From: Sedimentisphaerales bacterium
GTDB taxonomy: Bacteria > Planctomycetota > Phycisphaerae > Sedimentisphaerales > SM23-30
DNA length: 64,000 bases
Reading direction: 5' to 3'
Assembly: GCA_963663965.2 (NCBI GenBank)
Contig: CAXXFK010000032.1
Location: 64,001-128,000 of the forward strand
Part shown: positions 18,001-43,801 of the stretch, one piece after another
Layout: every line of letters starts with the position of its first letter
Numbering within the stretch: the first letter of the stretch is position 1
Translations under genes and position numbers: made by a program
The notes under the pieces: model-generated
What the model saw: only the letters and a program-made list of their open reading frames with translations
What the model was told of the DNA's origin: nothing
The model's database searches: none

Positions 18001-19068
18001 TTATTCTGGCGCTTTAAAAGTAACCACCGTCAACTCGGCGGTTGTCCAGCTTTTATTGTCCAGTATCTCATGCAGCTCACCCGGCTTCAGCTCCGGAGCA
18101 TTGTTCTTTCGCTCCACAACCACTAACGCCTTGGCTCCCTTGTTGATGGACTTGAAATTGCCGGTGTAATTTCCCGAATTCACCCCGGTCAGCAGCAAAG
18201 GCCGTCGTGTCGCGATCGCGCGCACCAGGAACTCACCGTGCGGGGGCTTGATTGCAATTTGAAAATCATCCAGCGGATCGGGGATCATCATCTTCCCACC
18301 CGCCTTAAGCAGCGACTGGCCTTGATGCAGGCGATTAGGATATAGCTGTGTCATATCCCCCTCGGGATCGAGCGCGATCAGCGTAATATAACAATCGGCT
18401 GTCGCCGTCAGGTTAAATTCGATAAACTCGCCTTCGGCATACACCCGCTTGAATTCAGGCGTCTCCAGCGTCACCTTAAATGGCTGGGTTGGATTAACCG
18501 AATCCATCAGATCGCTGTTCTCCAGGATAACCGGACCGTCAGGCCGCTCGCCCGGTTGGCCCGGCCCCGGCCGCGCCAGTTTCATATTCTCGATCAATTC
18601 CCGCGTCTTCACCGGCCACTGCTCCAGCTGATCCACCGGCGTCCAGCCCCGCCGAACCACCTTGGCCCCCGCGCAATCCAGCAGCCGCATACTCAAATGA
18701 TGCTTCTCACCCACCTTGGCCAGACTGCCCTGCAGCAGATAACGCACCTCGATCGAACGGCCGAACCGGGCCGCCTGCTCCGCGTTCGAATTCAACGCAC
18801 CCGGCTTCAACTGCTGCTTATCCAGCGCCTGCGCCAACTCACGCTCCTGATACAGCGGATACCGGCTGGCATCCACCTGACTCTGTATATACCGGCACAA
18901 CTGCTCACTCATCGGGTTGATCGGCGGATCGATCGCCTTGGACCGCACCGTAAACACCTCAAACGGTATCACCGCCAGCTTCCCTCCCGCCGGCGTATTC
19001 GGATCGGCCAAACCCGCGGCCGCCAGACAGGCAACCAGAACGATAACTATATTATATTTCCGTTTCAT
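18001..19068 (-). CDS. exported protein: CsgG/FlgO/TolB-N-like domain + DUF4384-like domain
   Basis: Signal peptide; LAVIPF...ERELAQAL...AARFGRSIEVRYLLQGSL; YAEGEFIEF...DCYITLI...LYPN...IP...PPHGEFLVRAIAT. Confidence 0.75.
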   Translation of the reverse strand: MKRKYNIVIVLVACLAAAGLADPNTPAGGKLAVIPFEVFTVRSKAIDPPINPMSEQLCRYIQSQVDASRYPLYQERELAQALDKQQLKPGALNSNAEQAARFGRSIEVRYLLQGSLAKVGEKHHLSMRLLDCAGAKVVRRGWTPVDQLEQWPVKTRELIENMKLARPGPGQPGERPDGPVILENSDLMDSVNPTQPFKVTLETPEFKRVYAEGEFIEFNLTATADCYITLIALDPEGDMTQLYPNRLHQGQSLLKAGGKMMIPDPLDDFQIAIKPPHGEFLVRAIATRRPLLLTGVNSGNYTGNFKSINKGAKALVVVERKNNAPELKPGELHEILDNKSWTTAELTVVTFKAPE

Positions 19069-19271
19069 TATCAGAACCTTCTATTGAAATTGTAATTGTT
19101 AAACACAACGTTCTCACGTCAAGAAATCACCAGCGTTTCTCTTCTTTGATATCACGCTTCCCCAAAGTACTATCCAATTTCCTTCAATCCCCCATCGCAT
19201 CAATAAACCCTAAAGGACGATAAACCACCTTAAGTGAGTCTGCCAAGCTCTAGCCAGCACAAGAGCCTGTA

Positions 19272-22200
19272 TCATAAAAAATGCATCAGAAGAACGCGAA
19301 ATCCGATAATCTCAGTACGAATAAAACGAGTATCACTTATACGTGCGGCTGAACGGCAATCAAATGGTGCACTAGTCCAGGATCCCCCACGCAGAATTCC
19401 CTTTGTTCCTCTGGATAATTTGGAACCGCTGCCAGAAGAATTATCGTACCAATTCCAACTCCATTCATATACATTTCCATGCATATCATATAAGTTCCAA
19501 CGATTGGGTTGAAAAGAGCCTTGCTTGCTGGTATAAATAAAGCCGTCCCGGCTTGAACTGGTTGGCGATTTGGGAAATTTATTTTTAAAACTAATATCCG
19601 CCATATTACCATAATACCCATGGTTATCCGGGTTATCACCCCAGAAATACAATGTATCCGTCCCCGACCGACAGGCATATTCCCATTGCGCTTCCGTTGG
19701 CAGGGTATAGAGACGGCCTTCTTTATTGCTTAACCATTCACAAAATGCTATGGCATCCTCCCAGGCAATGCAAACCACTGGGTGATCTGTACCCTGTTGA
19801 TAACCTGGCTGTTTCCAGTTAATGTTACCCCCCTTTTTTTCTTGAATAGTCACGTAGTGACTTGCAATAACAAATTGTTGAAATTGCTCAATATTCACTT
19901 CATATTGGCCAAGCCAGTATCCTGCATCAATCCTTTCAGTATGCTGCGGACGATCGTCGGTTATAATATAATCTTCTTCAACATTAAATTTTCTAGCTAT
20001 TTCACTATGCGATAATCTGCTGCCTAATTTAAATTCACCCGATGGTATCCATACAAGTTTCATTCCAATACTATTAGTCATTATATCGCCTGGTTCTGGT
20101 TCAAGATAACGTTCCAGCTTTGCTTTGAGTTGATTGGCTTCAGGATAAGCAGCATTGATCTCTAAAAGTTTATTGAGCATTTCTAAGCCTTTAGAGGCCG
20201 ATGTAATATCATCACAAGCCTGTGCCAAACGAAATAATTCCGATGCGTATACTTCGCGTGCGTGAGCAATCCGGTCAACTTCGTCCAGACTGCCTAGAAT
20301 CTCCTTCATCAGGGATAAAACACTCTTATAATCCGCCTTTTCGAAAGCCGCCGCCGCCTCTGCCATCAACCGCTCCAGCGCTTTCCAGTTTTCCCCGCCA
20401 TACCGCTGCATCAGGTCGGTATCATAACCGCTCATCCGGCGCTTCATCTGCTCAGCCGCCGCCTCTGCCAGTTCTTTCAACTGCACCTGCTCACGACCGG
20501 CTGCCTGTGCGCTCAACTGACCGGCCGCTTCGCTGATGTCATTAAACTGCTGACAAACTGAAGGCAGGTCCGCATCCGCCCGAACAATCTCTTTATAGTC
20601 CTGACGGAGTCTATCTAACTCCTCCGAACAAAACTCCTGGACCTTCGCATCATTTTGAGCCGCCGCCAGAACCGCCTGAGCATTCTCCTGCGCCTCGGTC
20701 AGCCGCTGCCGCCAGGCCGCCTGGCTCTCCTGCACGGCCAGTTCATATAAATCCGTAACGTCATTCATCACCCCCGCCGCTTCCAGTCGCCGGTCGGCGG
20801 ATAAGGCCCCCAGTGAGGCTTCTTTCTCGGCCGCGGTTTGACTGCGGTGCTGCGAATCGGCGATCTCAGCCGTTTGCCAGTGTTGCGCCCGGACTTTGGC
20901 CTGAGTCATTTTCTCACGGGCCGCATCATAGATGACCAATTCTTCCAATACCCGCCCGGTCTCCGCCTGTGCCCCGGAATAACCCTGGGCCGCCTGCTGA
21001 TAACTCCAGACTGCCCGGGCGTAATCACCTGACCGGTCATATTCCAATCCCCCATTATAACAGCTGTCAGCCTGGGCCATGGTCGCTTTGGCATGCAGCC
21101 GGGCCTCCTGGGCCTCTGCAACTTTTCGTGCATCCTGGGCACCCAGCTTGGACTGACCGGCATCCAACGCGCCAAAAGGATTTTCTATCTCTTTACCCAA
21201 CTCATACGCAGACAAATACGCCGGCCAATCCAGACAATCAGCCTGTTGCAGATAAACCTGCTTAAGAAAATCCACCTCCTCTAAATCCGCCAGATTCGGA
21301 TATGCTTCCCGCAGCTGTTCCATGGGTTGTTTCACGGATACGACTGGAGTGACGGGATCCGTATTGTGCGTGATCTCATTCTGCCCTCGATCAGGCATTG
21401 ATCTCGTATCCTCCCGATTCTGCCACCAGTAAATCCCTCCCACCAGCAGCAGAACCGCTACCAGCCCACCCGCCAGCATCTTGACAAGCCCACCACGTCC
21501 CGGCTTGGCCCCTGGCCTTTCCTCTCGTTTCAAAACTTGCGTTTTTTGCCCATCCAGGGTCTCATACCCACCCCCGCCGGCGGTCAGTTCTTCCACCAGT
21601 TCTCCCGCCGTACCCTGCCGCAACTCCGGCAATTTGGCCAGCGCCATGAGTATGGCATTATTGGCGGCCTTCGAGACGGCATCGATCGGATCGGCCTTTC
21701 GGCTCTTGATCTGCTCGCGGATATCCCCGGTATAAAAGGGAGGATGACCGGCCAGGCATTCGTACAACACGCACCCCAGCGAATAGATATCCATCCGCGC
21801 GTCCGGCTTATCCCCCATCAGCTGCTGCGGACTCATATACGGCAGCGTCCCCGAGGTCTCATTGCCCGTCAACCGGGTATAACTGTCCTTCATCTCCCGC
21901 GCGATCCCGAAATCCAGCACCTTCACCCGCCCATTCGGCCCCACCATGATATTGGTCGGCTTGATATCCCGGTGAAAGATCCCCTGACCATGCGCGTAAT
22001 CCAGCGCCGCCGCCACCTGCCTGGCCATCGGCAGCGCCTCCTCCAGCGTCATCACCTGCCCCTGTTCCAGCCGGTCGGCGATCAGATGATCCAGCGTCCG
22101 CCCCGCCACGTATTCCATCGTAATGAATTTCTCATGCCCCTCGCCATGCAGATCGTATATCCGCACAATATTATCATGGGCCAGCTTATGCGCCAGCGCC

Positions 22201-22397
22201 ACCTCCCGCCGCAGGTTATGCAGCGTTGTGCGATTCCCCGCCAGCGACGGCGGAATCATCTTAACCGCCACCCGCTCCCCAATCTCTACATCCTCCGCCA
22301 GATACACCAGCCCCATGCCGCCCTGACCCAGCTTTTCAATAACCCGGTAGCGACCGGCTAACAACTCACTCGGATAATCATCACTGGGCCTGGACAT
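19272..22397 (-). CDS. membrane Ser/Thr kinase with helical ectodomain and C-terminal FGE-sulfatase (C-lectin fold) domain
   Basis: LGQGGMG, VAVK, HRDIKPTN, DFG, GTLPYMSPQQ; TM LVAVLLLVGGIYWW; LPTEAQWEYACR, LYDMHGNVYEW, RGGSW, GFRV. Confidence 0.93.
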   Translation of the reverse strand: MSRPSDDYPSELLAGRYRVIEKLGQGGMGLVYLAEDVEIGERVAVKMIPPSLAGNRTTLHNLRREVALAHKLAHDNIVRIYDLHGEGHEKFITMEYVAGRTLDHLIADRLEQGQVMTLEEALPMARQVAAALDYAHGQGIFHRDIKPTNIMVGPNGRVKVLDFGIAREMKDSYTRLTGNETSGTLPYMSPQQLMGDKPDARMDIYSLGCVLYECLAGHPPFYTGDIREQIKSRKADPIDAVSKAANNAILMALAKLPELRQGTAGELVEELTAGGGGYETLDGQKTQVLKREERPGAKPGRGGLVKMLAGGLVAVLLLVGGIYWWQNREDTRSMPDRGQNEITHNTDPVTPVVSVKQPMEQLREAYPNLADLEEVDFLKQVYLQQADCLDWPAYLSAYELGKEIENPFGALDAGQSKLGAQDARKVAEAQEARLHAKATMAQADSCYNGGLEYDRSGDYARAVWSYQQAAQGYSGAQAETGRVLEELVIYDAAREKMTQAKVRAQHWQTAEIADSQHRSQTAAEKEASLGALSADRRLEAAGVMNDVTDLYELAVQESQAAWRQRLTEAQENAQAVLAAAQNDAKVQEFCSEELDRLRQDYKEIVRADADLPSVCQQFNDISEAAGQLSAQAAGREQVQLKELAEAAAEQMKRRMSGYDTDLMQRYGGENWKALERLMAEAAAAFEKADYKSVLSLMKEILGSLDEVDRIAHAREVYASELFRLAQACDDITSASKGLEMLNKLLEINAAYPEANQLKAKLERYLEPEPGDIMTNSIGMKLVWIPSGEFKLGSRLSHSEIARKFNVEEDYIITDDRPQHTERIDAGYWLGQYEVNIEQFQQFVIASHYVTIQEKKGGNINWKQPGYQQGTDHPVVCIAWEDAIAFCEWLSNKEGRLYTLPTEAQWEYACRSGTDTLYFWGDNPDNHGYYGNMADISFKNKFPKSPTSSSRDGFIYTSKQGSFQPNRWNLYDMHGNVYEWSWNWYDNSSGSGSKLSRGTKGILRGGSWTSAPFDCRSAARISDTRFIRTEIIGFRVLLMHFL

Positions 22398-22745: not shown

Positions 22746-24590
22746 TCAATACTGCTTCGTCTGGCATTCCGGACAGAACCGGCTATCCGCCGGAATCGAT
22801 TTCTTACACTTGACACAGGTCTTTTCCGCACTGGGTTGCTGCGGATTGATCACTACCGGCGCGCCGATCCCGCCGGCCCCGGCCACCACGGTCTGCCCTG
22901 CCGGCATCGGCGCCTGCGCCCGGGTGGCCGCTGTCCAGCCCATCTGACCCATCGCCGTATTCATCATCCGCTCCAGCCGGTCGGCATGTTCGCGGCTGGT
23001 CTGCTGCTGCTGAGCCATGAACTGCTGCATCTGCTGGGTCTGCTGACTGTTGATCAATGCCTCCGCCTTGTATTTTTCCACCAGCACCTGCGCCACATGC
23101 GGGCTGTCTGCCGCCGTCAACGCGATTAACTGGTCCGGACTTAGTTTTTCTTTGATCCGCAGTTCTTCCAGCCGGGCAATCCGGTCGGCCGCCGGACCAT
23201 CCAATATCGCCATCAGCGCCTGGGCCGACGCCTCCGAGAACTGCTTCAGCTTCAATCCCTCATTTTCCACCCGCGCCTTTTCCTCCGCGATGGTCATCTG
23301 CTCATCTTTATGATCCAGATCGATCAACCGCTCCACCACACCCAGGTGATCATGCCTCTCCTTCATATCCTGCTGATGATCATCCACCCGGATGGTTCGG
23401 TCTGCGTTGGCATCTTCAACCTTCTGGGTACGGTCAAATTCCTTCTGTTTCCCTTTTAACCCCAACTGCGAATCCAGTTCTTTATGGGCCTCCTCCCGGC
23501 GCGCGTCATTGGCAATCCCTTCGATCTCGATCCGGTTCAGTAGAATTGCCATCTCCCGGTTTTGCTCAAATTGCCGTTTGAGCCGGTCCATCTCATCATC
23601 CCGGATCAGGTCTTTCAGCCCCAGTTCATGTTCCGTCTGACGCAGAAAATCTTCCAGATCGCTGGCTGTCTTGATCTGGCTCATCTTCTCGGCGCTTTCC
23701 TCTTTCCGCAACCGCTGGGTCAGCTTCAACCGGTCAATATCGATATCCGCGTTGCGGGTCTCCACGTAAAGTTCCGACTCCCGTTCACGGATCGGATCAT
23801 AGGTCGGACAGAAAAAGTCCACAAATCGTAACTGGACCATTTCCAGTCCGATCCGCTCCAGGATCGGTTCAACCGCCAGTTGCATCTGCCGTTCCACCTC
23901 CGGCCGCAAGGCCGTATTGCCATACAGATCTTCCACCGAATGCCCGCCGACGTAAGTCTGCAACGCGCCGCGGATCTCATCCGCCAGCGATCCGGCCAGG
24001 TACCCCACCGATAAAATATTCCGCCCTTTAAATGCGTTGGTATAAAACCGCTCCGGTTCGCGCAAACACACCACCGCCTTGAATGAAGCGTCCACATCCA
24101 CCTGCTCTCGGCTGTGCAGTTTCAACGCGTCCAGATGCAGCGTCACATCCCCCGCGTCAATCAACACCACCGAAGTGGGCGTTGTCTGGTTAAAATGGTT
24201 CACCCGTTTCAAAAATCCATTCACATCGTATCGTCCCGGATCGACCGTCCCGCAAAAGCGCCCCTGCTGAAAAATCAGCGCGCTGGTGCCATGCTCGACA
24301 ATCAGCCCCTTGTTCAGAAAGCCCTTGACATCGCATTCCTGAATCCGGATGGCATAATCCTCTTCTTCACGCACCCACCGGTTATTGAACAACCGTTCTT
24401 TCCCCAACTCGCTCTGGTCAGCCCCGCATTTCCAGCAGAACTTCGCGGTCGACCCGATGGTCGACCCGCACCGCCCGCAATTGGTATCAGCATGTGTGGC
24501 CGGAGTTCCGCAATGGCGGCAAAAACTAGCCGTCCGTAAAATCGGCCGTCGGCATTCCGGATTCGTACATCGATTGGAAAAAAGTCCCAT
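22746..24590 (-). CDS. double zinc-ribbon + SPFH/band-7-like + coiled-coil + zinc-ribbon protein
   Basis: N-terminal CxxxxC/CxxC x4; LIVEHGTSALIFQQG...PGRY (SPFH_9-like); long charged coiled coil; C-terminal CVKC...FCPEC. Confidence 0.8.
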   Translation of the reverse strand: MGLFSNRCTNPECRRPILRTASFCRHCGTPATHADTNCGRCGSTIGSTAKFCWKCGADQSELGKERLFNNRWVREEEDYAIRIQECDVKGFLNKGLIVEHGTSALIFQQGRFCGTVDPGRYDVNGFLKRVNHFNQTTPTSVVLIDAGDVTLHLDALKLHSREQVDVDASFKAVVCLREPERFYTNAFKGRNILSVGYLAGSLADEIRGALQTYVGGHSVEDLYGNTALRPEVERQMQLAVEPILERIGLEMVQLRFVDFFCPTYDPIRERESELYVETRNADIDIDRLKLTQRLRKEESAEKMSQIKTASDLEDFLRQTEHELGLKDLIRDDEMDRLKRQFEQNREMAILLNRIEIEGIANDARREEAHKELDSQLGLKGKQKEFDRTQKVEDANADRTIRVDDHQQDMKERHDHLGVVERLIDLDHKDEQMTIAEEKARVENEGLKLKQFSEASAQALMAILDGPAADRIARLEELRIKEKLSPDQLIALTAADSPHVAQVLVEKYKAEALINSQQTQQMQQFMAQQQQTSREHADRLERMMNTAMGQMGWTAATRAQAPMPAGQTVVAGAGGIGAPVVINPQQPSAEKTCVKCKKSIPADSRFCPECQTKQY

Positions 24591-25823: not shown

Positions 25824-26780
25824 TTATTGAGGTATCGCCGTCTTATCGGTTTCCAGACCGGTCTTGTCCAAACGGGTCACTTTTAAATGAATGGTATCCA
25901 ATTGTTCCAGGTAAGCCGCAAGGTTATCTTTGATACCGGCGTCCATTCTTACCCAGAACAACGCCCGGCCGGTTTGCGAATCCCAACTGATCCTCGAAAC
26001 CGATTTGACTCCCGGCAACTTCTGTAATTCCGTCTCGATATAATCAACATACTTAACTCGTTTCAGGCCATCCACCTGAATCCTGCGCACCAATACCCCA
26101 CTTCCACTTTTTCGTAGAATCTCATAACTGAGTTCACCCGCCAATTCCTCCCCACACTTCTGGACCGTATTTTTCACAGCCTGGGACTGGTTGGTCGTAC
26201 GCTTACCGTATACATAAACATCTTTGGAAGCCAATACCTCGTTTCCGACAATCTGCAACACTTTGCCATCCGCTTCCGCTTCATAAAGATAATAATTGCC
26301 AAACTTATCCTTCTGGTCAACTCTCGTTAATCGGGCCAGAACCATTAAGTCAGCGTCATATTCATCCGCCAGACGTTCTACCGTTTCCGGCCGGGGGTTG
26401 TATCCCGGACATTTGTAAAAATCGAGAACCCGGTAATTCAAATTGACAAAATGACGCTTGATCTCATCCTTGAGATCATCCGCACCCGACTCGCCATCAC
26501 AACAGATCAACAGACGCAATAAGTCCAGCTTGGCCTGGTATACCAGATTACTTTCCTGATCACTAGATATAATATCGCCTGAATTATTATCTGGCCGCAA
26601 GATCGGATCGTCATTCTTTTTCGTTTCAACCGGTGTCGGTAAAATCGGAGGTTCCGTTTCCGGTTGGGTGACGACTCGAGGGTCCTGATAATCCGGTGTC
26701 CGTGGCTTACTACTGCCGCACCCACCGATAAATAATACCGTCAGTACAATACCCAAAGACAACACACACTTTTTCATCAC
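25824..26780 (-). CDS. putative lipoprotein
   Basis: Lipobox FIGGC, Pro-rich linker, AAGGAG RBS. Confidence 0.7.
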   Translation of the reverse strand: MMKKCVLSLGIVLTVLFIGGCGSSKPRTPDYQDPRVVTQPETEPPILPTPVETKKNDDPILRPDNNSGDIISSDQESNLVYQAKLDLLRLLICCDGESGADDLKDEIKRHFVNLNYRVLDFYKCPGYNPRPETVERLADEYDADLMVLARLTRVDQKDKFGNYYLYEAEADGKVLQIVGNEVLASKDVYVYGKRTTNQSQAVKNTVQKCGEELAGELSYEILRKSGSGVLVRRIQVDGLKRVKYVDYIETELQKLPGVKSVSRISWDSQTGRALFWVRMDAGIKDNLAAYLEQLDTIHLKVTRLDKTGLETDKTAIPQ

Positions 26781-27192: not shown

Positions 27193-27485
27193 GTAGTCTT
27201 CCTTATATACCGGTTAACTCCGGACTCCCCTGGTCCGATATCCATAAGTGACCAGGCTATTACATTTCTCTTCATTTACTGACATTGGAATTATAACCTA
27301 CAATCGGCTATTTGGCAACCTTTTATTTCATTTATTTTGATTTTACTTACTTTTATTTCCCTAAAATTACACATAACCAAGCCTGTATCGTTTTCCTCAT
27401 CATCATTTCTACTGGATAAAATTAAATTAAATACATCTTATTTGGATTACATCTTCATAACCGGCATTGATTCTTTCCTGAGTTT

Positions 27486-36590: not shown

Positions 36591-37190
36591 TTATCCGTTG
36601 GTTTCCTTCTTAAGTTTCGTTTCGATTTCACGCAGCATCAAGTCAATATGATTCTCGGTCGCGCTGGCCTGACCTTCCGCCTCCCGCCCAATCAATTCAT
36701 CGATCTGTTCGATCCCCGGCAGACCATCATCATCCGGTTCATAATCCAGCGTACTGCCGCTGACCCGGTCCAGCACCATATTCATGGTCCGGTCCATCTG
36801 CCGGGCGTTGGCCATCGCCAGATTCAACTCTCCGATCGTCTTGGTCAGATCGATGTTCTTGAACACCGACGCGATCGATTTGGTCGCCGCCTGCAATCCC
36901 TTGGCAAACTCGCCATAACTCTCGATCCGCTCCTTCGTCTGCACCATCGCTTCAAACGTCAGCAGCGCGCTCTCCAGCCGCCGCCGCTCGGCCATTGTCT
37001 GCAATAGCAGCTTCGCCAGCTTCTGATAATTCTCCGGATCCCCGATCTGGCGTGCCCGCACTGCTTTTTCGCAGTAGCCCCGCTCATGCTTCTTCAACTC
37101 CTTGATACGGCGCCGGTGCAAATCCAGCACATTCTGGATCGCCAGATCCCGTTCCAACTGCTTCTGCTGCTTGCTCTTAAATAATCCCAT
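36591..37190 (-). CDS. ESCRT-III/Snf7-superfamily-like protein (Vps2/Vps24/Did2-like)
   Basis: 199 aa, all-helical; MGLF start; basic hairpin (EKAVRARQIGD..NYQKLAKLLL...RRRL); FAKGLQAATKSIASVFKNIDL; acidic linker (YEPDDDG..IEQIDELI); terminal amphipathic helix HIDLMLREIETKLKK; adjacent to the Vps4-like ATPase. Confidence 0.72.
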   Translation of the reverse strand: MGLFKSKQQKQLERDLAIQNVLDLHRRRIKELKKHERGYCEKAVRARQIGDPENYQKLAKLLLQTMAERRRLESALLTFEAMVQTKERIESYGEFAKGLQAATKSIASVFKNIDLTKTIGELNLAMANARQMDRTMNMVLDRVSGSTLDYEPDDDGLPGIEQIDELIGREAEGQASATENHIDLMLREIETKLKKETNG

Positions 37191-37242: not shown

Positions 37243-38431
37243 CTAAGACACCCCGTTCCCCCACCTCTCAAACCGTTCCAGATCCTCACCTCCCGTTCCC
37301 GGCCGGATCCGCTCCAGCGCCGCCTCCAGATCTGCCACCCGGATCGCTTCCACCTTCAGTTCATAACTCTCCAGCGCCACCCGGCCCGACTCCGCCACCC
37401 GCGCCAGATCCGGGTTCGCCCGCGAGATCATCCGCCGGATCAGTTCTTTCCCAATCTGCTCCAGCTCCCGGCCGCTATAACCCTCCGTCCGGGCAGCCCA
37501 CTCAGCCAGATCGCCCTCAACCTGATACCCCCGCCGGGTCAGCAGCAACTCCAGAATCGTCTCCCGCGCCGCTCCATCCGGCAGATTCACATACGATAGC
37601 TTGCCAAACCGCGACAGCACCGCCGAATCGATCAGCCACGGCTTATTCGTCGCCGCGATCACCAGCACCAGCCGGCCATCCGACTTGCTCTCGAAGCCAT
37701 CCATACTGGTCAGCAATTCCGCCAGCACCCGCCGTTCAGCGCCATCGGCCCGCCCATCCCGGTCCGGCACCAGCGACTCAAAATCATCCAGAAAGATCAC
37801 CGATGGATGCATCCGCGCCGCCAGTTCAAACACCGCGTTAATCAGCTTGCCCGACTCGCCAAAATACTTGCTCAGCAGATCGCTCACCTTACACGAAAAA
37901 AACGTCGCCTCCAGCCCTTTCGAAATCGCCGCCGCCACCAGCGTCTTGCCCGTTCCCGGCGGGCCGTACAGCAGCAGGTTGGCATGCCGCGGCAGCCCCA
38001 CCCCCTCCGGCCGCTTCGCCAGCGCCAGTGCGAACGTCTCCTTGATAAACTGCTTGATCTCATCCAGACCCGCGATATCTTCCCAGCCAACCTTCGCCTT
38101 GCGGATCAACTGCCGCGCGTTCTCAAAATAACCCGCCTCCTCCGGCCCCACCGCCGCTTCCACATCTCTATCCGCCCCATCCGCCTCAGTATCCTCAGCC
38201 GAGCCTCCCGCGCGCAACTGCTCCGCCAGCTTCTTCAGCTTCTCCGCGTCCGCCAGCCGCCTGGCCCGCACCGATTCGCTCACCGCGCTCCTGGCATACC
38301 GGGCCATCAACTCACCCGCCCGCGCATACCGCACCGCCGCCGCCTCACCCTGACCCGCCGCCTCCAGCGCACGCGCCTCCACCAACACCCCGTTCCAACT
38401 GCTCACCGGTTACACCACTCAAATCTACCAT
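37243..38431 (-). CDS. Vps4/CdvC-like AAA+ ATPase with N-terminal MIT-like domain
   Basis: MIT-like ARALEAAG..EAAAVRYARAGELM...SVRARRLADAEKLKKL; VGWEDIAGL; GPPGTGKT; SDLLSKYFGESGKL; PSVIFLDD; AATNKPWLIDSAVLSRF; TEGYSG; Vps4_C-like DLEAALERIRP...EDLERFERW. ATG 38431 with an AAGGA RBS needs removal of one G from a G run; the ORF track start is GTG 38406. Confidence 0.85.
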
Positions 38432-38511
38432 AAAATTCTAATTTCCTTGTTCTAAAAGTCAGGCTTTTCCAAAGTACTATCCAAATTCCATCCATCTCCC
38501 ATCGCATTACT

Positions 38512-39149
38512 GAGGTCCAAAGGACCGCCAGTTCCTAGCCGGGGGCGTCAGCCCCCGGAAAACGAGCTCCCCCCACACAACAAGCCCCGGAGGGGCGACA
38601 GAATTAATCAAAAATATAACGCTTATCATATTCCACTCCATGTTTATCCAGCAACTGGATCAACTCCGTTTCATAACTCATCACCTCATGATGCGCCTGC
38701 TGGCCGTTGACATAATCGACAACCTTCTGCAAACCGGAATACGAAACCGTAAACGACGAATACCCTGTTTGCCAGGCAAAAAACGAACAGCCGCCATCAG
38801 TCTCTTTATACCATTTCGAGGAATTGGCTTTCACATCTCTGACAAAATCAGCCAGACACTCTGCCGGCTTCAGTTTCGCCACCAGATGAATATGGTCCGG
38901 CATACCATTGGCAGTAACCAAAACCTGACCTCGATTCCTGACAATCCCGCCAAGATAATCACACAAGCGCGGAATCGTTTCAATATTAATCAATCGCCTC
39001 CTCTCTTTGGTCGAAAAGACAATATGATAATATAACTGAGTAAAAGACACTAATAATATCCTTTCGCCCTTTCAGGGCTTTGTTTTATTCTACTATCCTG
39101 TCCCGGGGCCTCACGGCCCCGGCTAAAAACTCGCGGCCCGTCGGGCCTC
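38512..39149 (-). mobile_element. IS200/IS605-family (REP-associated, RAYT-like) element: tnpA flanked by ~90-bp imperfect inverted arms
   Basis: Arms 38512-38601 and 39061-39149 are imperfect reverse complements, each with three hairpins (e.g. CTAGCCGGGGGCGTCAGCCCCCGG). Confidence 0.8.
38604..39050 (-). CDS. tnpA: Y1 (HUH) transposase
   Basis: YHIVFSTKER, DHIH (HUH), KANSSKW, FAWQTGYSSFTVS, YVNGQQAHH. Confidence 0.93.
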   Translation of the reverse strand: MSFTQLYYHIVFSTKERRRLINIETIPRLCDYLGGIVRNRGQVLVTANGMPDHIHLVAKLKPAECLADFVRDVKANSSKWYKETDGGCSFFAWQTGYSSFTVSYSGLQKVVDYVNGQQAHHEVMSYETELIQLLDKHGVEYDKRYIFD

Positions 39150-39232
39150 TCCAATGGACGATGTTATTTTCATGTCAATTGACAGATCACATCTTCATTT
39201 CAACAATCATTTTTTTCTTAAAATCACAATTC

Positions 39233-39345
39233 CCAAAGAACTATCCAAATTCCATCCACCCCCCATCGCACCACCGAAGCCCGAAGGTCGAAGATCCGCC
39301 TCAGGAGGAACCGCCAGTTCCTAGCCGGGGGCGTCAGGCGTCAGA
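39233..39345. repeat. partial REP arm with 38-nt leader and inserted ATCCGCCTCAGGAGGA
   Basis: Near-identical to 39832-39944. Confidence 0.75.
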
Positions 39346-39418
39346 GTCTTTATTGTATTTTTCAATCACACATTTCCAAAGAACTATCCAAACTCCATTC
39401 ATCCCCCATCGCACTCCT

Positions 39419-39632
39419 GAGGTCCAAAGGACCGCCAGTTCCTAGCCGGGGGCGTCAGCCCCCGGAAAAAGACTCCCCCCACACAACAAGCCCCGGAGGG
39501 GCGACAGAATATTTATTCATTTCTTTCAATCTCAAACAAAACGCTTTCGCCCTTTCAGGGCTTTGTTTTATTCTACTATCCTGGTCCGGAGCCTCACGGC
39601 CCCGGCTAAAAACTCACGGCCCTTCGGGCCTC
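39419..39632. mobile_element. non-autonomous (MITE/REPIN-like) copy of the tnpA element
   Basis: Both arms are near-identical to 38512-38601 and 39061-39149, but only 36 nt apart with no tnpA between them. Confidence 0.8.
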
Positions 39633-39831
39633 TCTAATGGCTAGGTTATTTTTAGCGCTATTGACGCTTATCATGCACATTAAACACAAATCAAGAACAC
39701 CTCTTATAACTATCCATTCCATCCTTCTTCTAAAATAACAAATCGCCAAAACACTTCAAATAACCAAATCTCCTCATCATCATTTCATATACAGAAATGA
39801 TGAAACTTCTTTTTCTTATAATCTCATATTT

Positions 39832-39986
39832 CCAAAGAACTATCCAAATTCCATCCATCCCCCATCGCACACCTGAAGCCCGAAGGTCGAAGATCCGCCT
39901 CAGGAGGAACCGCCAGTTCCTAGCCGGGGGCGTCAGGCGTCAGAATAAAAGCACGCTCCCATCTCAAGGCCCGAAGGGCCGAAAGA
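39832..39986. repeat. REP arm variant with 38-nt leader
   Basis: Same leader and CTAGCCGGGGGCGTCAG core, ending in the GGCCCGAAGGGCC hairpin. Confidence 0.75.
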
Positions 39987-40095: not shown

Positions 40096-42321
40096 TCAGT
40101 CCAGACCTCCAACGCACAACACCCGAAAACCTAAATCGCGGCAGACAGGGATGATCCAGTAGCGATTGGCGGTGCGGCAGCTGATTTCACCATTGTTCCA
40201 ACTGCCGCCGCGCAGAACACGGCGGGCGCCACTGGTCGGCCCAATTGGATCACTAGCTGGACTTTTACTGTAATAATTCTCATCATACCAGTCCAGACAC
40301 CATTCCCATACATTGCCATGCATATCATATAATCCCCAGCCATTCGACTGCTTCTGGCCCACTGGATGAGTCTTACCACCACTATTGTCATCATACCAGG
40401 CATAATTACCCAACTGGCTCACGCTATCACCAAAACTATAGTCTGTTTTCGTTCCAGCCCTACAGGCATATTCCCATTGCGCTTCCGTTGGCAAAGTATA
40501 AGTCTTTCCTTCCAACTCACCTAACTTCTTACAAAATGCCATGGCATCTTCCCAACTCACACTCTCCACCGGATTGTTATCACCTTTAAAACTACTGGGA
40601 TTCGTCCCCATCACTTTTTCATATTGGGCCTGGGTCACTTCATACTGTCCCAGCCAGAAGCCCTTCGTAATCTTCACCTGATGAACCGGCTTCACATTAC
40701 CCTTTCCATTATGACTCCCCATCATAAACTCACCCGGCCCGATCCACACCAGTTTCATGCCGATACGATTGGTCATCAAATCACCCGGTTCGGGCCCATA
40801 GTATCCAGCAATTTTCTTATATAATGACAACGCCTCTAAATGTCCCGGTTCCAATTTTAAAAGTTCATCCAGCGCCTTAAGGGCCTCTCTTCCATCAGTC
40901 TTATTATCCTTAGCGCGCGCCAAAATTAACAGCCTGTCAATCTTTTGACGAACAATAATTTTTTGCGGCCGCTGGATTCTTTTCGTTTTCTCTTCTATCG
41001 CGTCCAGCATGCGGCTCAATCGCCTGGCCGGCTGACTGCCATTGGCCACGCCGGCAATGGCGGCTGATATCTCCCGGTCTTTATCATCCAGATAGTCAGC
41101 CGCTTCTTGCCGGGCCTTCACCATTGCCTCGGCAAATTGATAGTCTTCCAGTCCAAGCTCTTCATCCAGGTACATCTCCCATAACGCTTTCAGATCAATA
41201 AAGACACCAGACTGACCGGTTCCAGATGAACTTGATTGCGCCTCGATCTGAAAATCCCGCCAGTATTGACGCGCCTTTTCGAGATCTTCACCACTCAGGC
41301 CGACCGCGATCGCCAGCGGCATCCGTCGCGCGTTTTCTGACGCGTCCAGTCGCGGTTGCGGGATATGCTCCCAGGCCACGGAGGGCTTGTTGCGGACTAT
41401 CCAGCGGCGCACGCCATCAGCCACATATTGATTCAAGGTGCCCACTGTGACAAAGCCGCCTTCATCCGCCTTCGCCTGTCCGCGTAAACCCTGCAATAAA
41501 AAATGGGTAAATACCCCATAACCGCTGTCGGGGTCTTCATAACTGAGTTGACCAATGCCGCAACTGGTCAGGGTAATCTGGCCCCGCCCGGCGGCAAAGG
41601 CTTTCATAAAGGCTTCACTCATCGCCGGCCCGGCGCCACCCGACTTGCTGCGGCCCACCCGTTCCCGGCAGGCGTCCAGAATAACCATCTTCTTGCCCGC
41701 CCTGGATTCACTGATGGTATCGGTCAATATCTTGGAACGCAGGGCCGTATCGCTCAGATAGGCGCGCAGACCATCGGACGGCATGATATAAATGCTGTTA
41801 TCATCTTCAAAGCCATGTGAACTGACTGATACGATTACCAGGTCTTCACCGGATACCGGCATGCGGGTGGCAATAATCAGTCCATTCAGGATATCGCTTT
41901 TAGCCGCGTTTTTCAATTCCGCGCCGGCAGCTTTCAATCGCCGCAACTGCTCTACGGCAACCGGCAGGGTTGGCTGACCGGACAGACACAAAATACAGTT
42001 ATTGGCCGGAATCAGTTTCAGCTCTTCTACGAAAAGATACGCCTGACTGACCGCGTCATTCACCGCGCAATTTAATGAGGCCAGACTCGAATCTTTGGTA
42101 AATTCATTAACTCCGACAAATAGTCCGGCGCTATTACTCCTGGCCAGTGGAGTAACAGCCTGGAGTTCATTTTTTGGTAATTCCACTACCATGAGTGCTT
42201 TGGATCGATCTGACTCTGTATCGGCATTCACAGCGAATAGAAGCCAATGATTCAGTATCAACAATGCTGCTGCAAACCATAATTTCTGAGATCGCATATC
42301 ACTACTCCATATCCATCCCAT
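40096..42321 (-). CDS. exported caspase-like (peptidase C14) protein with C-terminal FGE-sulfatase domain
   Basis: Signal peptide; SVSSHG and ILDACR catalytic dyad; GVFTHFLLQGLRG; LPTEAQWEYACRAG, LYDMHGNVWEW, RGGSW, GFRV. Confidence 0.9.
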   Translation of the reverse strand: MGWIWSSDMRSQKLWFAAALLILNHWLLFAVNADTESDRSKALMVVELPKNELQAVTPLARSNSAGLFVGVNEFTKDSSLASLNCAVNDAVSQAYLFVEELKLIPANNCILCLSGQPTLPVAVEQLRRLKAAGAELKNAAKSDILNGLIIATRMPVSGEDLVIVSVSSHGFEDDNSIYIMPSDGLRAYLSDTALRSKILTDTISESRAGKKMVILDACRERVGRSKSGGAGPAMSEAFMKAFAAGRGQITLTSCGIGQLSYEDPDSGYGVFTHFLLQGLRGQAKADEGGFVTVGTLNQYVADGVRRWIVRNKPSVAWEHIPQPRLDASENARRMPLAIAVGLSGEDLEKARQYWRDFQIEAQSSSSGTGQSGVFIDLKALWEMYLDEELGLEDYQFAEAMVKARQEAADYLDDKDREISAAIAGVANGSQPARRLSRMLDAIEEKTKRIQRPQKIIVRQKIDRLLILARAKDNKTDGREALKALDELLKLEPGHLEALSLYKKIAGYYGPEPGDLMTNRIGMKLVWIGPGEFMMGSHNGKGNVKPVHQVKITKGFWLGQYEVTQAQYEKVMGTNPSSFKGDNNPVESVSWEDAMAFCKKLGELEGKTYTLPTEAQWEYACRAGTKTDYSFGDSVSQLGNYAWYDDNSGGKTHPVGQKQSNGWGLYDMHGNVWEWCLDWYDENYYSKSPASDPIGPTSGARRVLRGGSWNNGEISCRTANRYWIIPVCRDLGFRVLCVGGLD

Positions 42322-42351: not shown

Positions 42352-42981
42352 CTAAACGCCTTCTTCCTTCTCCATCTCCTCCTCCACCTTAAACACCTTC
42401 TTCTCAATATCATCCCACGCCCGCTCATCCAGTTCCTGGCCGCCCGCCTCTTCCATCGCCGCCATAATCTTTTCGATCTCCGGATCGACTGTTTCCACTT
42501 CGCTATCCCCTTCACCCAATATATCCAGCAGCCGCCGGCTCTGCGCGTCCCCCTGCTTGCTCTTCACCTTGACATCCAGCATGAATTTCTCCAGCGCCTC
42601 CGGCTCCACCGAACTGATCATCCCCCATAGCCCCTCGCTCTTGAGCAGGTTCTCCCGCTTCTTGATCTGCAACAGTTTCCCCGTCACCATAATCTGCCGG
42701 CTGACAATTGTATTAGCCTTCAACACATCCTTCACCTCATCATCCACCTGCTTGATCTGAATCGCCATCGACTGCCGTTCGATCGTACTGGTTTTCTTGC
42801 GCCCCTCCTCAAACAACGCCCGTTTCTTCGCCTCCAATTCCCGTACCTCCTTGATAAACCCATCCTGAACGGTTTGTAACCGGATCTTCTCATTCTCCAG
42901 CTCATTCGTACTCAGCTTCTCGATCGCAACCAGTTTCCGGTTCCCGCCAAACAATCCCGCTAATTTATTCAACATGTTCAT
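42352..42981 (-). CDS. second ESCRT-III-like helical protein
   Basis: ~209 aa; N-terminal amphipathic MLNKLAGLFGG; long helical hairpin; acidic tail (DSEVETVDPEIEKIM...WDDIEKKV). ATG 42981 follows a GAAGGA RBS (ORF track start 43029). Confidence 0.55.
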   Translation of the reverse strand: MNMLNKLAGLFGGNRKLVAIEKLSTNELENEKIRLQTVQDGFIKEVRELEAKKRALFEEGRKKTSTIERQSMAIQIKQVDDEVKDVLKANTIVSRQIMVTGKLLQIKKRENLLKSEGLWGMISSVEPEALEKFMLDVKVKSKQGDAQSRRLLDILGEGDSEVETVDPEIEKIMAAMEEAGGQELDERAWDDIEKKVFKVEEEMEKEEGV

Positions 42982-43039
42982 AACGCATTCCTTCGTCATC
43001 TGGTTTATGATTAATGTAGTTGTAACCATTTAAACACTA

Positions 43040-43801
43040 TCACCCTTCCACCCTCCGCTTAATCACCATCCCCACCTCCTTAATCTTCACTACCGTCAAC
43101 CGGTGATCCTCCTCCGCCAGCTTCCGCGCCACTTTTTCCACCAGCCCAGACTCCCAGTAATGCTCCAGCGCCAGCTGTTCCAACCCGGCAAACTCCCTCA
43201 CCCGCAATTCATGAACCATCGCGTCACGACAGGCCGCCTCCCGCTCCTGCCGGGTTAAACCCGAAAAGATCGGTACATGACGCAGTATCAGTTCCTGTTT
43301 CCTATCCCAGACCAGCGAGGTAATGTCCGGCCCGATCAATATCGGCAGCACCCGTCCTCCCGGCCAGCCGCTGCCCGGCGGATCGTTAACCACATAATCC
43401 CGCGCGCCCTGATTCCACCCCGTCGGGCTATACAATCCCAGTATCAACGCCTCATTCGCCATTCCCAATGACTGCTCCCGTTCCTTTAATAATGTATGTA
43501 AATCACCCTGGCCCATCGGCTCATCATACCCACCATCAGCCACCAGCAGGTCATACCTCAACACCACCTTCCCAGCCAATTGTACCCCCGGCAGACTCTC
43601 CCCAAACAGTTTCTTTACCGGCGCCAGCCGTAATCCCAACTCTTTCCCCAAAGGGTAACGCGCACATAACTCATTACGCAGCAACTGGTTATTCGTCAGT
43701 TTGCGTAAAATAGCGATCCCATCCCCCTCCCGTAACTGGATTCCACCGGCCAGATCAGACAGATTCGCCCGCAACCGGCTGATAAACTGCTCTTCCTTCA
43801 A
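43040..43801 (-). CDS. hypothetical protein: alpha/beta (restriction-endonuclease-like) domain + C-terminal winged helix
   Basis: LILGLYSPTGWNQGARDYV; C-terminal helix-FAGLEQLALE-helix(SGLVEKVARKL)-beta hairpin (LTVVKIKEVGMVIKR). First gene of the cluster. Confidence 0.55.
   Translation of the reverse strand: MKEEQFISRLRANLSDLAGGIQLREGDGIAILRKLTNNQLLRNELCARYPLGKELGLRLAPVKKLFGESLPGVQLAGKVVLRYDLLVADGGYDEPMGQGDLHTLLKEREQSLGMANEALILGLYSPTGWNQGARDYVVNDPPGSGWPGGRVLPILIGPDITSLVWDRKQELILRHVPIFSGLTRQEREAACRDAMVHELRVREFAGLEQLALEHYWESGLVEKVARKLAEEDHRLTVVKIKEVGMVIKRRVEG

Follow-up and report, generated by a model that had tools for sequence, protein, structure and literature searches.

To our knowledge, reviews hold that the archaeal-type ESCRT-III/Vps4 membrane-cutting machine is absent from bacteria. 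The planctomycete cluster described here very probably encodes a machine of this kind, beside receptor kinases and a phosphopeptide adaptor. Its core corresponds gene for gene to the euryarchaeal 'Main-clade' ESCRT locus, as found on a Thermococcus peptonophilus plasmid (Makarova et al. 2024, PMC10936438): both have a Vps4-type MIT-AAA ATPase, ESCRT-III proteins of arCOG07402 and arCOG09747/09749, an arCOG09748-type winged-helix (wH) protein and a membrane Ser/Thr kinase, in similar order. Membrane kinases and phosphatases are also part of archaeal Main-clade loci, for which the same authors inferred a phosphorylated cargo. In contrast to these loci, the cluster has a bacterial host; of arCOG09748 it retains just the C-terminal ~250 aa, the N-terminal part being replaced by an HTH-Zn finger, and in its kinases the catalytic domain precedes an FGE ectodomain. 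It adds SPFH, Zn-ribbon (ZnR)-Ig-FHA and LpoB-like proteins, lipoproteins and caspases, and relatives (4/5 close ones) add a second, Cdc48-like MIT-AAA. The locus in the window (the whole 64,000-nt stretch analysed) lacks arCOG08177 and the PP2C phosphatase, and is therefore a derived variant.

The Halo_FHA and Meth_adaptin loci (PMC10936438) are alike at the domain level, with FHA beside Vps4/ESCRT-III, SPFH with coiled coil and Zn ribbon, and a Zn-ribbon, Ig-like adaptor, but no CdvA-like part was detected in the present FHA protein, and no TBP, GOLD or ProX genes were seen. With the eukaryotic/Asgard ESCRT-II-III-Vps4 and crenarchaeal CdvABC systems the cluster shares CHMP3/Snf7-like ESCRT-III, a VPS4-like MIT and a Vps22-like wH, whereas no ubiquitin, UEV or CdvA was seen in it; many unrelated wH domains resemble its wH at least as closely as ESCRT-II does. 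Bacterial PspA/Vipp1 and the loci of Ravi et al. 2024 (PMC11237479) likewise place the ESCRT-III superfamily in bacteria, with Band-7 links. As described there, AAA+ ATPases and ABC transporters adjoin some Snf7-clade members of bacteria that have a TM segment; in the bacterial Vps4 loci a TPR-6TM gene takes the place of snf7, and no wH, kinase or FHA partners are described. The proteins of the cluster are, in contrast, Snf7-type, not PspA, and without TM. C-terminal FGS domains and caspase-like peptidases are also found, as variable parts, in the conflict systems of Kaur et al. 2020 (PMC7159879), but the cluster lacks the MoxR/vWA or GTPase core described for them; ESCRT and Snf7 are absent from the main text of that paper.

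Results

The cluster comprises 17 ORFs, all on the minus strand, from 43801 down to 18001 (Table 1), with gaps from g01 to g17 of 10, 30, 1045, 197, 52, -41, 17, 92, 20, 110, 293, 22, 13, 71, 348 and 203 nt. The co-oriented series and gene order of the initial annotation were confirmed for all 17 ORFs, and its domain calls held, with Pfam and other models returning three kinase+FGE, one caspase+FGE, two FHA, HTH_17, DZR+Band_7, two LpoB-like, DUF4384 and Y1_Tnp. In this search the AAA ORF gave only a weak Vps4_C match and the Snf7 match was weak too; the wH, MIT and both ESCRT-III identities were settled by profiles or structure models.

Table 1. Features of the cluster and its probable extension, in order along the minus strand.
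Feature	Position	Strand	Basis
Probable island extension: 616-aa lipoprotein-like gene and 636-aa caspase-FGE gene	49512..53546	-	Orthologues inside relatives' ESCRT clusters
g01, ESCRT-II-like: N-terminal alpha/beta domain, C-terminal wH	43040..43801	-	AF2 model, profile
g02, ESCRT-III B, arCOG09747/09749 type	42352..43029	-	Profile matches to Thermococcus Snf7 proteins
g03, exported caspase-like protease with FGE/FGS (C-lectin fold), variable cassette	40096..42321	-	Pfam Peptidase_C14, FGE-sulfatase
IS200/RAYT-type tnpA among REP-like GC-rich hairpin repeats	38459..39986 (tnpA 38604-39050)	- (tnpA)	Y1_Tnp E 1e-22
g05, Vps4-like MIT + single AAA+ ATPase (AAA1)	37243..38431	-	Profiles, clade, motifs
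g06, ESCRT-III A, arCOG07402 type, CHMP3/Snf7-like	36591..37190	-	Profile vs PDB
g07, Ser/Thr kinase - TM - helical stalk - degenerate FGE	33644..36577	-	Pfam
g08, 559-aa lipoprotein	31947..33626	-	Lipobox
g09+g10, one ZnR - Ig-like - FHA - FHA adaptor gene	30146..31854	-	Fusion in relatives, X1 contig
g11, Ser/Thr kinase - TM - TPR-like stalk - FGE	27486..30035	-	Pfam, motifs/topology
Sigma70-like promoter upstream of g12, 11/12 match	27290..27318	-	Top site of promoter scan
g12, HTH_17 + Cys-rich Zn finger	26803..27192	-	Pfam HTH_17 E 1e-17
g13, 318-aa lipoprotein, family not assigned	25824..26780	-	Lipobox
g14, exported, 2 x LpoB/CsgG-like domains, C-terminal TM anchor	24662..25810	-	Pfam LpoB E 5e-12, 2 stretches
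g15, double Zn ribbon - SPFH/Band7 - coiled coil - Zn ribbon scaffold	22746..24590	-	Pfam
g16, Ser/Thr kinase - TM - helical stalk - FGE	19272..22397	-	Pfam, motifs/topology
g17, exported protein with DUF4384	18001..19068	-	DUF4384 E 1e-19

The g06 profile (A2) matched CHMP3 (E 2.7e-6), Snf7 (7e-4) and CHMP2A (0.011) in the PDB and scored Thermococcus WP_062390961 at 67.3 bits; the protein has an N-terminal amphipathic segment and a C-terminal MIM-like helix. A PspA/Vipp1 identity was rejected, as none appeared among its eight PDB matches at E<=1. For g02, a profile of the window protein and four close homologues scored two Thermococcus Snf7 proteins at 58.9 and 40.7 bits, the best of 260 shuffles reaching 4.8. 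Its model is a long helical hairpin, a fold match not diagnostic by itself, and its start is probably near 42981. In the AF2 model of g01 (pLDDT 91), residues 182-253 form the wH (UFL1 Z 8.9; ESCRT-II 3cuq_A Z 7.8, rmsd 3.1, 66 aligned), and residues 1-180, which match the YqgP NTD (Z 8.2, rmsd 3.1, 120 aligned), are predicted to adopt either a restriction-endonuclease-like or a YqgP-NTD-like fold. Judged from a profile match of 65.7 bits to residues 355-592 of Thermococcus WP_062390970, a protein listed under arCOG09748, g01 is homologous to the C-terminal half of this family. The missing N-terminal half corresponds to g12, on a separate gene; homologues of g12 and g01 are joined as one gene in four of nine metagenome loci (L108, L109, L113, L114; Chloroflexota-type), and the Zn finger is joined to the wH in Chlorohelix and in 4/40 distant planctomycete loci.

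The MIT profile of g05 had the VPS4B MIT as top PDB match (E 0.0013). Its score against the CdvC model was 159 bits over residues 11-325, below the cut-off of 650, and its clade is sister to three euryarchaeal Vps4. The Walker B motif given initially had to be corrected: it reads DD instead of DE, and the catalytic Glu is absent. DD is common to L001-L004 and 30 of the 120 best homologues, and is therefore a conserved clade trait. The start is probably ATG 38431, with a frame change in a G run of the assembly (38388-38391) that none of the read pieces listed from public run X1 crosses. No second MIT-AAA was found in the source genome (G000). Profiles, PDB matches and the structure model thus backed the ESCRT-III, Vps4 and wH identities first proposed, and we regard this identity of the core as highly probable. 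The tnpA gene exceeds the cut-off of the IS200 family model and lies among repeats D1, D3, D6, D8 and I1-I9; there were 17 blast matches genome-wide. Gene and repeats are not in the cores of L001-L004 or G431, and are an insertion into the ESCRT core.

The three kinases are single-pass proteins (TM of g07 at 373-391) with intact catalytic motifs and lectin-fold domains on the predicted periplasmic side. A start of g07 at 36577 is probable and abolishes its overlap with g06. The caspase-like g03 has intact His-Gly and DAC motifs, an N-terminal hydrophobic segment and a full-length orthologue (32%) in the L003 cluster. For the adaptor, the ZnR and FHA domains of the initial annotation stood (FHA E 1e-14, Pfam) but the separate ORFs (31003-31854 and 30146-30982) did not: both almost certainly belong to a single gene that a 1-nt assembly difference has divided, because an X1 contig (4820 nt, depth 2.9, no mismatches) has one additional base at 31005 and the fusion exists in 4/5 close relatives (L002/G514, L003/G401, L004, G431). 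The true gene count is then almost certainly 15 plus tnpA. The middle domain resembles CARDB/Ig and, as a lead, 122-aa archaeal proteins (ESM Atlas). FHA domains carry a conserved Ser and a Gly-Arg motif; here the first has Gly at the Ser position and the second lacks Gly-Arg.

The lipoprotein g08 matched no Pfam family; its similarity to a member of the 616-aa family (23% identity, E 1.7e-6) marks it as a distant paralogue of the protein at 49512-51362. The other lipoprotein, g13, is by its occurrence co-distributed with the ESCRT system (4/251 genomes of the order, all four ESCRT-positive). The label 'CsgG-like' for g14 is valid at fold level, the family match being LpoB (Pfam/NCBIfam), and a weak profile link (E 3e-4, prob. 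41%) leads to an LpoB-like membrane protein of 12/40 distant loci. The SPFH protein recurs in 5/5 close and 23/40 distant loci, Band_7 being detected in 7/23 family members. A search with g17 found no homologue in 5/5 ESCRT-positive relatives, and the gene is probably accessory.

Full-length orthologues of the extension genes lie in the ESCRT clusters of G431 (31%, 94% covered) and L003 (36%, 97% covered), and the island probably reaches 53546. Three of the ten Hanks-type kinases of G000 sit in 26 kb out of 7.24 Mb, so that their crowding exceeds chance. A sigma70-like scan gave 40 sites, by consensus match alone, versus 21.4 +/- 4.2 in shuffles. A separate promoter inside the cluster (27318) is likely, and a single transcript for the whole unlikely. 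The idea that all genes form one fixed unit was not supported, in view of this promoter, of kinases that match relatives over at most 48% of their length, with no full-length orthologues there, and of several parts found in 0/40 distant loci. The kinase-FGE and caspase-FGE genes are individually variable, exchangeable cassettes.

The ESCRT-III-A gene was found in 75/401 Planctomycetota genomes. It is present in 7/251 genomes of the source order and 0/24 of the source family, and fixed in two other orders (19/19 and 9/9 genomes) that were selected after the matches were known. Given this patchiness in its own order, the system does not account for the elaborate membranes of Planctomycetota generally, as had been suggested. 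Among five close relatives, two with loci cut by contig ends, the order wH, ESCRT-III-B, AAA1, ESCRT-III-A is kept in 5/5, HTH-Zn and SPFH are present in 5/5, and the 318-aa lipoprotein, LpoB-like protein, ZnR-FHA fusion, kinases and second AAA in 4/5 each; in G431 the system is a self-contained 20.7-kb block. Forty distant loci from 24 families, chosen by hand among 74 positives to favour long contigs and a wide range of families, were counted with family profiles built from the same loci: 35 had the wH, 37 a further ESCRT-III, 35 any MIT-AAA and 14 a co-oriented kinase (opposite-strand kinases, 7/40), while FHA, a separate HTH-Zn gene, the 318-aa lipoprotein and the double LpoB-like gene were each found in 0/40. 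The Ca. Chlorohelix plasmid has the same core with three FHA genes, six kinase genes (one kinase-FGE), PP2C and an HTH gene, and Chloroflexota-type loci have HTH-Zn and wH fused, with kinases and FHA added. The neighbourhood survey proposed at the outset thus found the partners recurring in distant planctomycete families, Chloroflexota-type loci and the archaeal Main clade.

Discussion

The system is probably an accessory bacterial version of the euryarchaeal Main-clade ESCRT, horizontally acquired and rewired toward sensing in the periplasm. From gene context we infer a signalling link, by which the receptor kinases and phosphopeptide adaptor probably switch on the ESCRT machine. In the mechanism that we favour, with a probability of about 0.5 for the whole and every functional step conjectural, a periplasmic ligand or envelope damage would cluster the kinase-FGE receptors, aided by LpoB-like proteins and lipoproteins; the kinases would phosphorylate themselves or cargo, and the FHA adaptor and SPFH cage would mark a membrane patch. 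There g12/g01 would nucleate ESCRT-III-B, then ESCRT-III-A. The ATPase would grip the ESCRT-III C-terminal helices through its MIT and remodel the polymer, perhaps slowly owing to its Walker B Asp; where a second MIT-AAA is present, it would assist. The inner-membrane patch would be pinched off into the periplasm and processed there by the caspase-like proteases. Canonical ESCRT-III topology leads to budding away from the cytoplasm, and the invagination initially considered was set aside on this ground. If the mechanism is true, its net role would be triggered membrane removal, sorting or repair, and phosphorylation would take the role that ubiquitin has in eukaryotes. Points against this mechanism are the co-oriented kinases in only 14/40 distant loci, the opposite-strand kinases in 7/40 and FHA in 0/40; further ones are the short match of the window's kinases to relatives, the interruption of the core by tnpA/REPs, the likely separate promoter, two atypical FHA domains, a Walker B without catalytic Glu and the lack of a second MIT-AAA in G000.

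The core (wH/Zn, two ESCRT-III, MIT-AAA, SPFH) could instead be a self-sufficient membrane-repair machine that substitutes for PspA, the kinase, caspase and FGE genes being passengers in an insertion hotspot. The variable genes do differ in number and position among the five close relatives, GC per gene spans 0.41 to 0.65, dispersed repeats (89 and 34 copies genome-wide) precede g11 and g16, FGE domains are common elsewhere in G000, no PspA was found in G000, and in 7/7 f59 loci neither a co-oriented Hanks-type kinase nor SPFH lies within 10 kb. We nevertheless find this unlikely, as kinases adjoin the core in 13/24 distant planctomycete families, in Chloroflexota-type loci and in Thermococcus, three of ten G000 kinases are here, and the FHA adaptor and 318-aa lipoprotein travel with the core. 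An anti-phage or anti-predator conflict system would work in largely the same way as the favoured mechanism, the trigger being different: invaders at the envelope would be recognised by diversifying FGS receptors, and ESCRT-III would cut out the attacked membrane or kill the cell. FGS and caspase domains are recurrent bacterial conflict effectors in the systems described by Kaur et al. (PMC7159879), the distribution is patchy and island-like, receptor ectodomains turn over fast, and the Chlorohelix plasmid copy includes a kinase-TIR protein; but no nuclease, NADase or pore effector was found in the window's cluster, a template-repeat search for diversity-generating mutagenesis was negative at 5/5 FGE ends, and the core is fixed in two other orders, which makes this reading rather improbable.

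That fixation, the place of the f59 ESCRT-III-A gene among housekeeping genes and the failure to find FtsZ in G000 or in 17/17 f59 genomes would fit a role in the division of planctomycetes without FtsZ, or in constitutively forming their endomembranes, like Cdv in Sulfolobales. However, FtsZ is normally present in Chloroflexota carriers, the two fixed orders were picked with the matches in view, and the scarcity of the system in the source order and family implies that relatives divide without it; this is the least probable of the readings considered. Decay of the G000 copy into a non-working one, also very improbable, would explain the DD Walker B, the single MIT-AAA, the tnpA/REP insertion and two frame changes in the assembly. 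Yet DD is a clade trait, and the X1 contig lacks the break at 31005 and departs from the assembly by single bases at two intergenic positions as well, so that an assembly error is indicated; the core proteins are still 59-75% identical to those of relatives.

Homology of the core proteins

The cluster is genuine: a bacterial variant of euryarchaeal ESCRT of unusual completeness, in which a system resembling the archaeal Main clade is joined to a trans-envelope kinase layer. For ESCRT-III-A (g06), a 47-row profile was compared with PDB sequences. All eight sequences at E<=1 were CHMP3, Snf7 or CHMP2A, and none was PspA/Vipp1; PspA_IM30 (PF04012) had no match in the Sedimentisphaerales genome (G000). 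The last helix of g06 is conserved and amphipathic, and lacks the Arg-Leu pair that we take to be canonical for MIM1. The profile of ESCRT-III-B (g02) matched no PDB sequence, neither CHMP/Snf7 nor PspA. It was assigned to the Snf7 type because archaeal Snf7 proteins match its profile, with 58.9 bits for arCOG09747 and 40.7 bits for arCOG09749 (best of 260 shuffles, 4.8). In the g02 model a long hairpin of helices 1 and 2 precedes short helices. ESCRT-III chains stand high among its structural matches, level with unrelated hairpins, and Foldseek and VIA on this model were set aside as non-diagnostic for the fold. A profile comparison between ESCRT-III-A and -B was weak (E 0.01). Polymerisation on membranes and their remodelling are predicted for g02 and g06.

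The g05 ATPase is flanked on both sides by ESCRT-III genes. With a 26-row profile of its N-terminus, the VPS4B MIT domain ranked first in the PDB (E 0.0013), and the best PDB sequence hits of g05 were two-domain Cdc48/VAT proteins. Its Vps4_C score was 19.4 for a cut-off of 21.3, and it scored 159 bits with the CdvC model NF041006 (cut-off 650) and 165 bits with the CDC48 model. Two MIT-AAA families occur in the neighbourhoods, AAA1, to which g05 belongs, and AAA2. In the alignment, AAA1 consists of MIT and a single AAA domain with an aromatic pore loop 1, and has no Cdc48-type insert ahead of the arginine finger, whereas AAA2 carries one; these motifs are presumed to have the same meaning as in Vps4. 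AAA2 is present in four of five close relatives, and was not found in G000. ATP-driven disassembly of ESCRT-III by g05 is predicted.

In a 61-row tree, the 45 AAA1 rows grouped together (99/94), with three euryarchaeal Vps4 as their sister group. The Vps4 trees were built without TACK, Asgard and eukaryotic rows and their root was unstable, so that they do not give the direction of transfer. The window's AAA1 subclade, on a long branch, falls among rows of Chloroflexota type, away from 18 rows of other planctomycete type. A smaller tree of 20 rows, from which unnamed rows and five redundant rows had been removed, joined it to Chloroflexota (91/88), but the AU test did not reject monophyly of the planctomycete rows (p 0.059), and a separate origin of this clade from the other planctomycete AAA1 was not adopted.

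Comparison with known systems

The decisive comparison for the core was a Thermococcus peptonophilus locus found by a plasmid search, whose genes are labelled Vps4, arCOG09748, arCOG09747, arCOG09749, arCOG07402 and arCOG08177 in Table S2 of Makarova et al. (PMC10936438). With the Main clade the window shares an MIT-bearing Vps4-like ATPase next to ESCRT-III, and ESCRT-III proteins of the arCOG09747/09749 and arCOG07402 types, the latter at 67.3 bits with the g06 family profile. The wH protein (g01) keeps the central domain and wH of arCOG09748 (residues 355-592, 65.7 bits with the family profile), without the N-terminal ~350 aa. Its profile found nothing among PDB sequences. In the g01 model (pLDDT 91), a wH forms the C-terminal part and the N-terminal domain resembles YqgP NTD, AF1548 and Rpb5-N; since Z is only 7-8, this likeness is a lead. 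For the arCOG09748 domain that matches this N-terminal part, Makarova et al. reported no structural match. The predicted complex of g01 and g02 (median 0.31, mark 0.32) weighs neither way.

Main-clade systems often include a membrane Ser/Thr kinase; the window has three, each with one TM segment and a different ectodomain. A Ser/Thr phosphatase, also frequent there, is absent from the window cluster, and the only PP2C-like match lies on another G000 contig. According to the same source, arCOG08177 (a protein with an inactive Cas2 and a TBP fold) is in all Main-clade systems. A single-query search of low sensitivity (tblastn of G000 and phmmer of the ORFs from the fetched loci, both at E<=0.01) detected no copy, and no unassigned cytoplasmic gene remains for it in the window cluster. 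From the g01, g02 and g06 profile matches to Main-clade arCOGs, and with arCOG08177 not found, we conclude that the system would work like the Main clade and comes from the same stock, yet is no member in the strict sense.

In the bacterial Vps4 loci of Ravi et al. 2024 (PMC11237479), a TPR-6TM gene displaces snf7, whereas in the window two Snf7-type genes flank the ATPase. G000 probably also has a system of the Vps4-like/TPR-6TM type (C18:47785-50418), a TPR-AAA ATPase followed by a 416-aa gene with a putative 6TM part.

Sensing proteins

All three kinases (g07, g11, g16) keep the Gly loop, the VAIK-type lysine, HRD and DFG, and by hydropathy their TM segment lies between kinase and FGE; they are three of the ten kinases of G000. 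The caspase (g03) keeps His-Gly and DAC, preceded by an N-terminal hydrophobic segment. The first catalytic Cys is absent from all five FGE domains, consistent with ligand-binding FGS domains rather than catalytic FGE. The first FHA domain keeps Arg, His and Asn and has lost Ser; the second is degenerate. A role of the FGE genes as DGR targets was rejected: no template repeat matching any of the five FGE gene ends was found in G000 (~95% complete).

Conservation of the partners

Five close relatives were compared: L002, L003, G431 and, truncated at contig ends, L001 and L004. All five keep the order wH > B > AAA1 > A, with kinases inserted in some. HTH-Zn and SPFH each occur in 5/5, and the 318-aa lipoprotein, the LpoB-like gene, ZnR-FHA and kinases in 4/5 each; g17 (DUF4384) was found in none. 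The 318-aa lipoprotein was found in four of the 251 genomes of the order, all four ESCRT-positive. In these assemblies Vps4, the 318-aa lipoprotein and HTH-Zn are split by frame changes (L004 3048-4497 and 5734-6757, L001 12229-13143, L002 13886-14531), probably through sequencing errors.

A more distant set covered up to 20 kb around g06 in 40 of the 74 other positive genomes, selected to favour long contigs and many families (24). The counts have limits: the profiles derive from the very loci counted, related genomes are not independent, and contig ends truncate several loci. The wH gene was counted in 35 loci, a further ESCRT-III in 37, AAA1 in 28, AAA2 in 24, either ATPase in 35 and both in 17. 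SPFH-like genes were present in 23, LpoB-like membrane proteins in 12, and kinases in 14 (co-oriented) and 7 (opposite strand). Thus the partner recurrence for which the initial annotation proposed a survey was recovered for wH, SPFH and co-oriented kinases, but not for ZnR-FHA (0/40); a separate HTH-Zn gene, the 318-aa lipoprotein and the double LpoB-like gene were likewise absent from all 40.

Nine metagenome loci were found with the Levilinea ATPase as query. ESCRT-III-B directly precedes AAA1 in seven, and a kinase directly follows it in three. In four of the nine, HTH-Zn (g12) and wH (g01) are fused in one protein, which links g12 to the core across 16 kb.

Two further loci were observed. 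L103 (G597, same order; 13748-20539) is of another subtype, with a 788-aa wH-bearing protein, AAA1 and AAA2, and several caspase, FGE and DUF4384 genes in its flanks. L105 (G401; 5460-7991) has a membrane-anchored Zn-ribbon/Ig-like adaptor paralogue, and further caspase genes lie downstream of the cluster.

Distribution

Of 401 Planctomycetota genomes, 75 (counting G000) had a match to g06. Searching the whole library yielded 597 clusters (E<=0.001); the small number with a name belonged to Phycisphaerales, Planctomycetales, Pseudomonadota and Acetothermia. Named carriers are Levilinea saccharolytica (ATPase) and a plasmid of the cultivated Ca. Chlorohelix allophototropha. The ~50-kb plasmid cluster (L107, L085) has both ESCRT-III types, AAA1, a Zn-wH protein, three FHA genes, six kinase genes, among them a kinase-FGE and a kinase-TIR, as well as PP2C and an HTH gene. 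WD40, NHL, FGE and TIR domains are borne by its kinases or exported proteins, and the annotation calls every core gene hypothetical or ATP-binding.

The ESCRT-III-A gene is fixed in two further orders, which were picked once the hits were known, among genomes at least 85% complete: 19/19 (19/20 in the class) and 9/9. FtsZ was found in 0/17 genomes of the planctomycete family f59, which belongs to the first of these orders, and not in G000 (controls positive in 13/14). Seven f59 loci (L051-L053, L057-L059, L061) carry, among housekeeping genes, a minimal operon of wH, two ESCRT-III, AAA1 and ESCRT-III-A, which is the best candidate for a division role.

Proposed mechanism and alternatives

Composition, homology, hydropathy topology and co-occurrence are the observed basis of the mechanism we propose. 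Ligand or damage would cluster the receptors, and clustering would lead to phosphorylation. The machinery would then be recruited via the adaptor, SPFH and g12/g01; ESCRT-III-B would assemble first and -A after it, followed by MIT-dependent remodelling of ESCRT-III. The inner membrane would be cut toward the periplasm, the usual ESCRT topology. To this receptor-triggered scission as a whole we give a probability of about 0.5.

The receptors might instead be passengers beside a stand-alone repair core. Kinase and caspase-FGE genes differ in number and position among the close relatives, and no window kinase aligns to relatives over more than 48% of its length; we consider this reading possible if unlikely. 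A conflict system is improbable. Decay of the copy is a very improbable account. The Walker B motif is DD, with Asp for the catalytic Glu, in the window and L001-L004, and has Glu in every other locus where it was read. Among the 120 best g05 homologues, 30 had DD and 85 DE (5 unread). Being common to L001-L004 and to 30/120 homologues, DD is a conserved clade trait, which likely slows ATP hydrolysis, as far as AAA+ knowledge tells.

Division or endomembrane biogenesis in G000 is likewise very improbable. In its order, g06 matches occur in 7/251 genomes, one as a fragment, and in 0/24 of its own family, and G431 carries the whole system as one 20.7-kb block amid unrelated genes; the system is therefore accessory here. 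A wider reading, which we hold to be improbable, is a full bacterial ESCRT-II/III/Vps4-like pathway: kinases would tag cargo by phosphorylation instead of ubiquitin, the FHA/Ig adaptor would sort it into periplasm-budded vesicles, and in the fixed orders the core would be a division or scission machine. For division it draws on the two fixed orders, with no FtsZ in the 17/17 genomes examined of the first.

Relation to published work

A 2025 review (PMC7619361) describes Vps4-like ATPases as apparently absent from bacteria, Makarova et al. find ESCRT components not identifiable there, and Liu et al. (PMC8281802) confine Snf7-type proteins to archaea and eukaryotes. Makarova et al. treat archaea only, and describe STK, FHA, SPFH, wH and Ig partners. 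Ravi et al. report, beside bacterial Vps4-like ATPases with snf7 displaced, some bacterial Snf7 members adjoining AAA+ ATPases, so the bacterial pairing is not wholly unreported; further entries of their Table S3 and the web app may hold relatives. None of the titles and abstracts found described a bacterial Main-clade-type system, and a full-text search found no paper combining ESCRT, Vps4 and Planctomycetota; most subscription papers lay outside both searches.

The presence of an ESCRT-III/Vps4/wH set in about one fifth of the Planctomycetota genomes sampled, as well as in Chloroflexota, with named organisms among the carriers, bears on Vps4 and Snf7 as archaeo-eukaryotic signatures. It makes testable the role of the uncharacterised euryarchaeal Main-clade ESCRT, the question whether phosphorylation preceded ubiquitin as ESCRT cargo tag, and membrane cutting in some FtsZ-less planctomycetes.

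Locus organisation and neighbouring elements

G000, of which the window is C32:64001-128000, comprises 7.24 Mb in 42 contigs and is 94.6% complete; the nearest named loci to the window are Sedimentisphaerales, Planctomycetota. The gene order and content of the initial annotation were recovered for 17/17 ORFs, numbered along the minus strand from g01 (43040-43801) to g17 (18001-19068), and its domain calls hold. Its separate ZnR (g09) and FHA (g10) genes are almost certainly one: a contig of run X1, at depth 2.9 and possibly from the source sample, has one more base at 31005, and the homologue is fused in four of five close relatives. "CsgG-like" stands as a fold-type label based on LpoB hits. 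The g05 gene probably starts at ATG 38431, since that frame begins like its homologues, with a frame shift in the G run at 38388-38391, which no piece of the compared runs spans.

The core is interrupted by tnpA and REP-like hairpins. An X2 joint (38507-40300) was left out, as it ends within a conserved FGE stretch. A sigma70-like site (at 27318) matching 11/12 consensus positions lies upstream of g12, so that one transcript across the whole cluster is unlikely.

Features around and within the cluster
Feature	Position	Strand	Remark
616-aa lipoprotein-like and 636-aa caspase-FGE genes	49512-53546	-	orthologous over full length to genes within other ESCRT clusters
Divergent module: TPR lipoprotein, 333-aa exported coiled coil, 129-aa protein, ExbB, ExbD, TonB-like, 195-aa protein	44321-49456	+	
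Two large choice-of-anchor Q / POMP-repeat surface proteins, 1004 and 1226 aa	54119-61667	+	just past the island
Dispersed ~100-bp intergenic elements, two kinds	22511-22612, 22630-22740, 30045-30138		89 and 34 genome copies
REP-like GC-rich hairpins around IS200/RAYT-type tnpA	38459-39986, 17048-17145, 19158-19274		17 blast hits genome-wide

The 616-aa family gene follows FGE genes in G613 and G514. In G613 (L117) the first four genes of the divergent module appear in the same sequence, pointing away from a kinase gene that resembles g07/g16, and the module may be part of the same island.

The dispersed elements may be MITE-like or small RNA. A 94-nt repeat before g11 and g16 was rejected as a cluster-specific leader, being a genome-wide element. 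A second tnpA was seen on contig C19. Three imperfect 40-nt tandem copies lie at 16780-16899, directly after a glycosyltransferase gene, and the plus strand has a strong C-over-G skew at 10000-52000, mostly -0.15 to -0.39.
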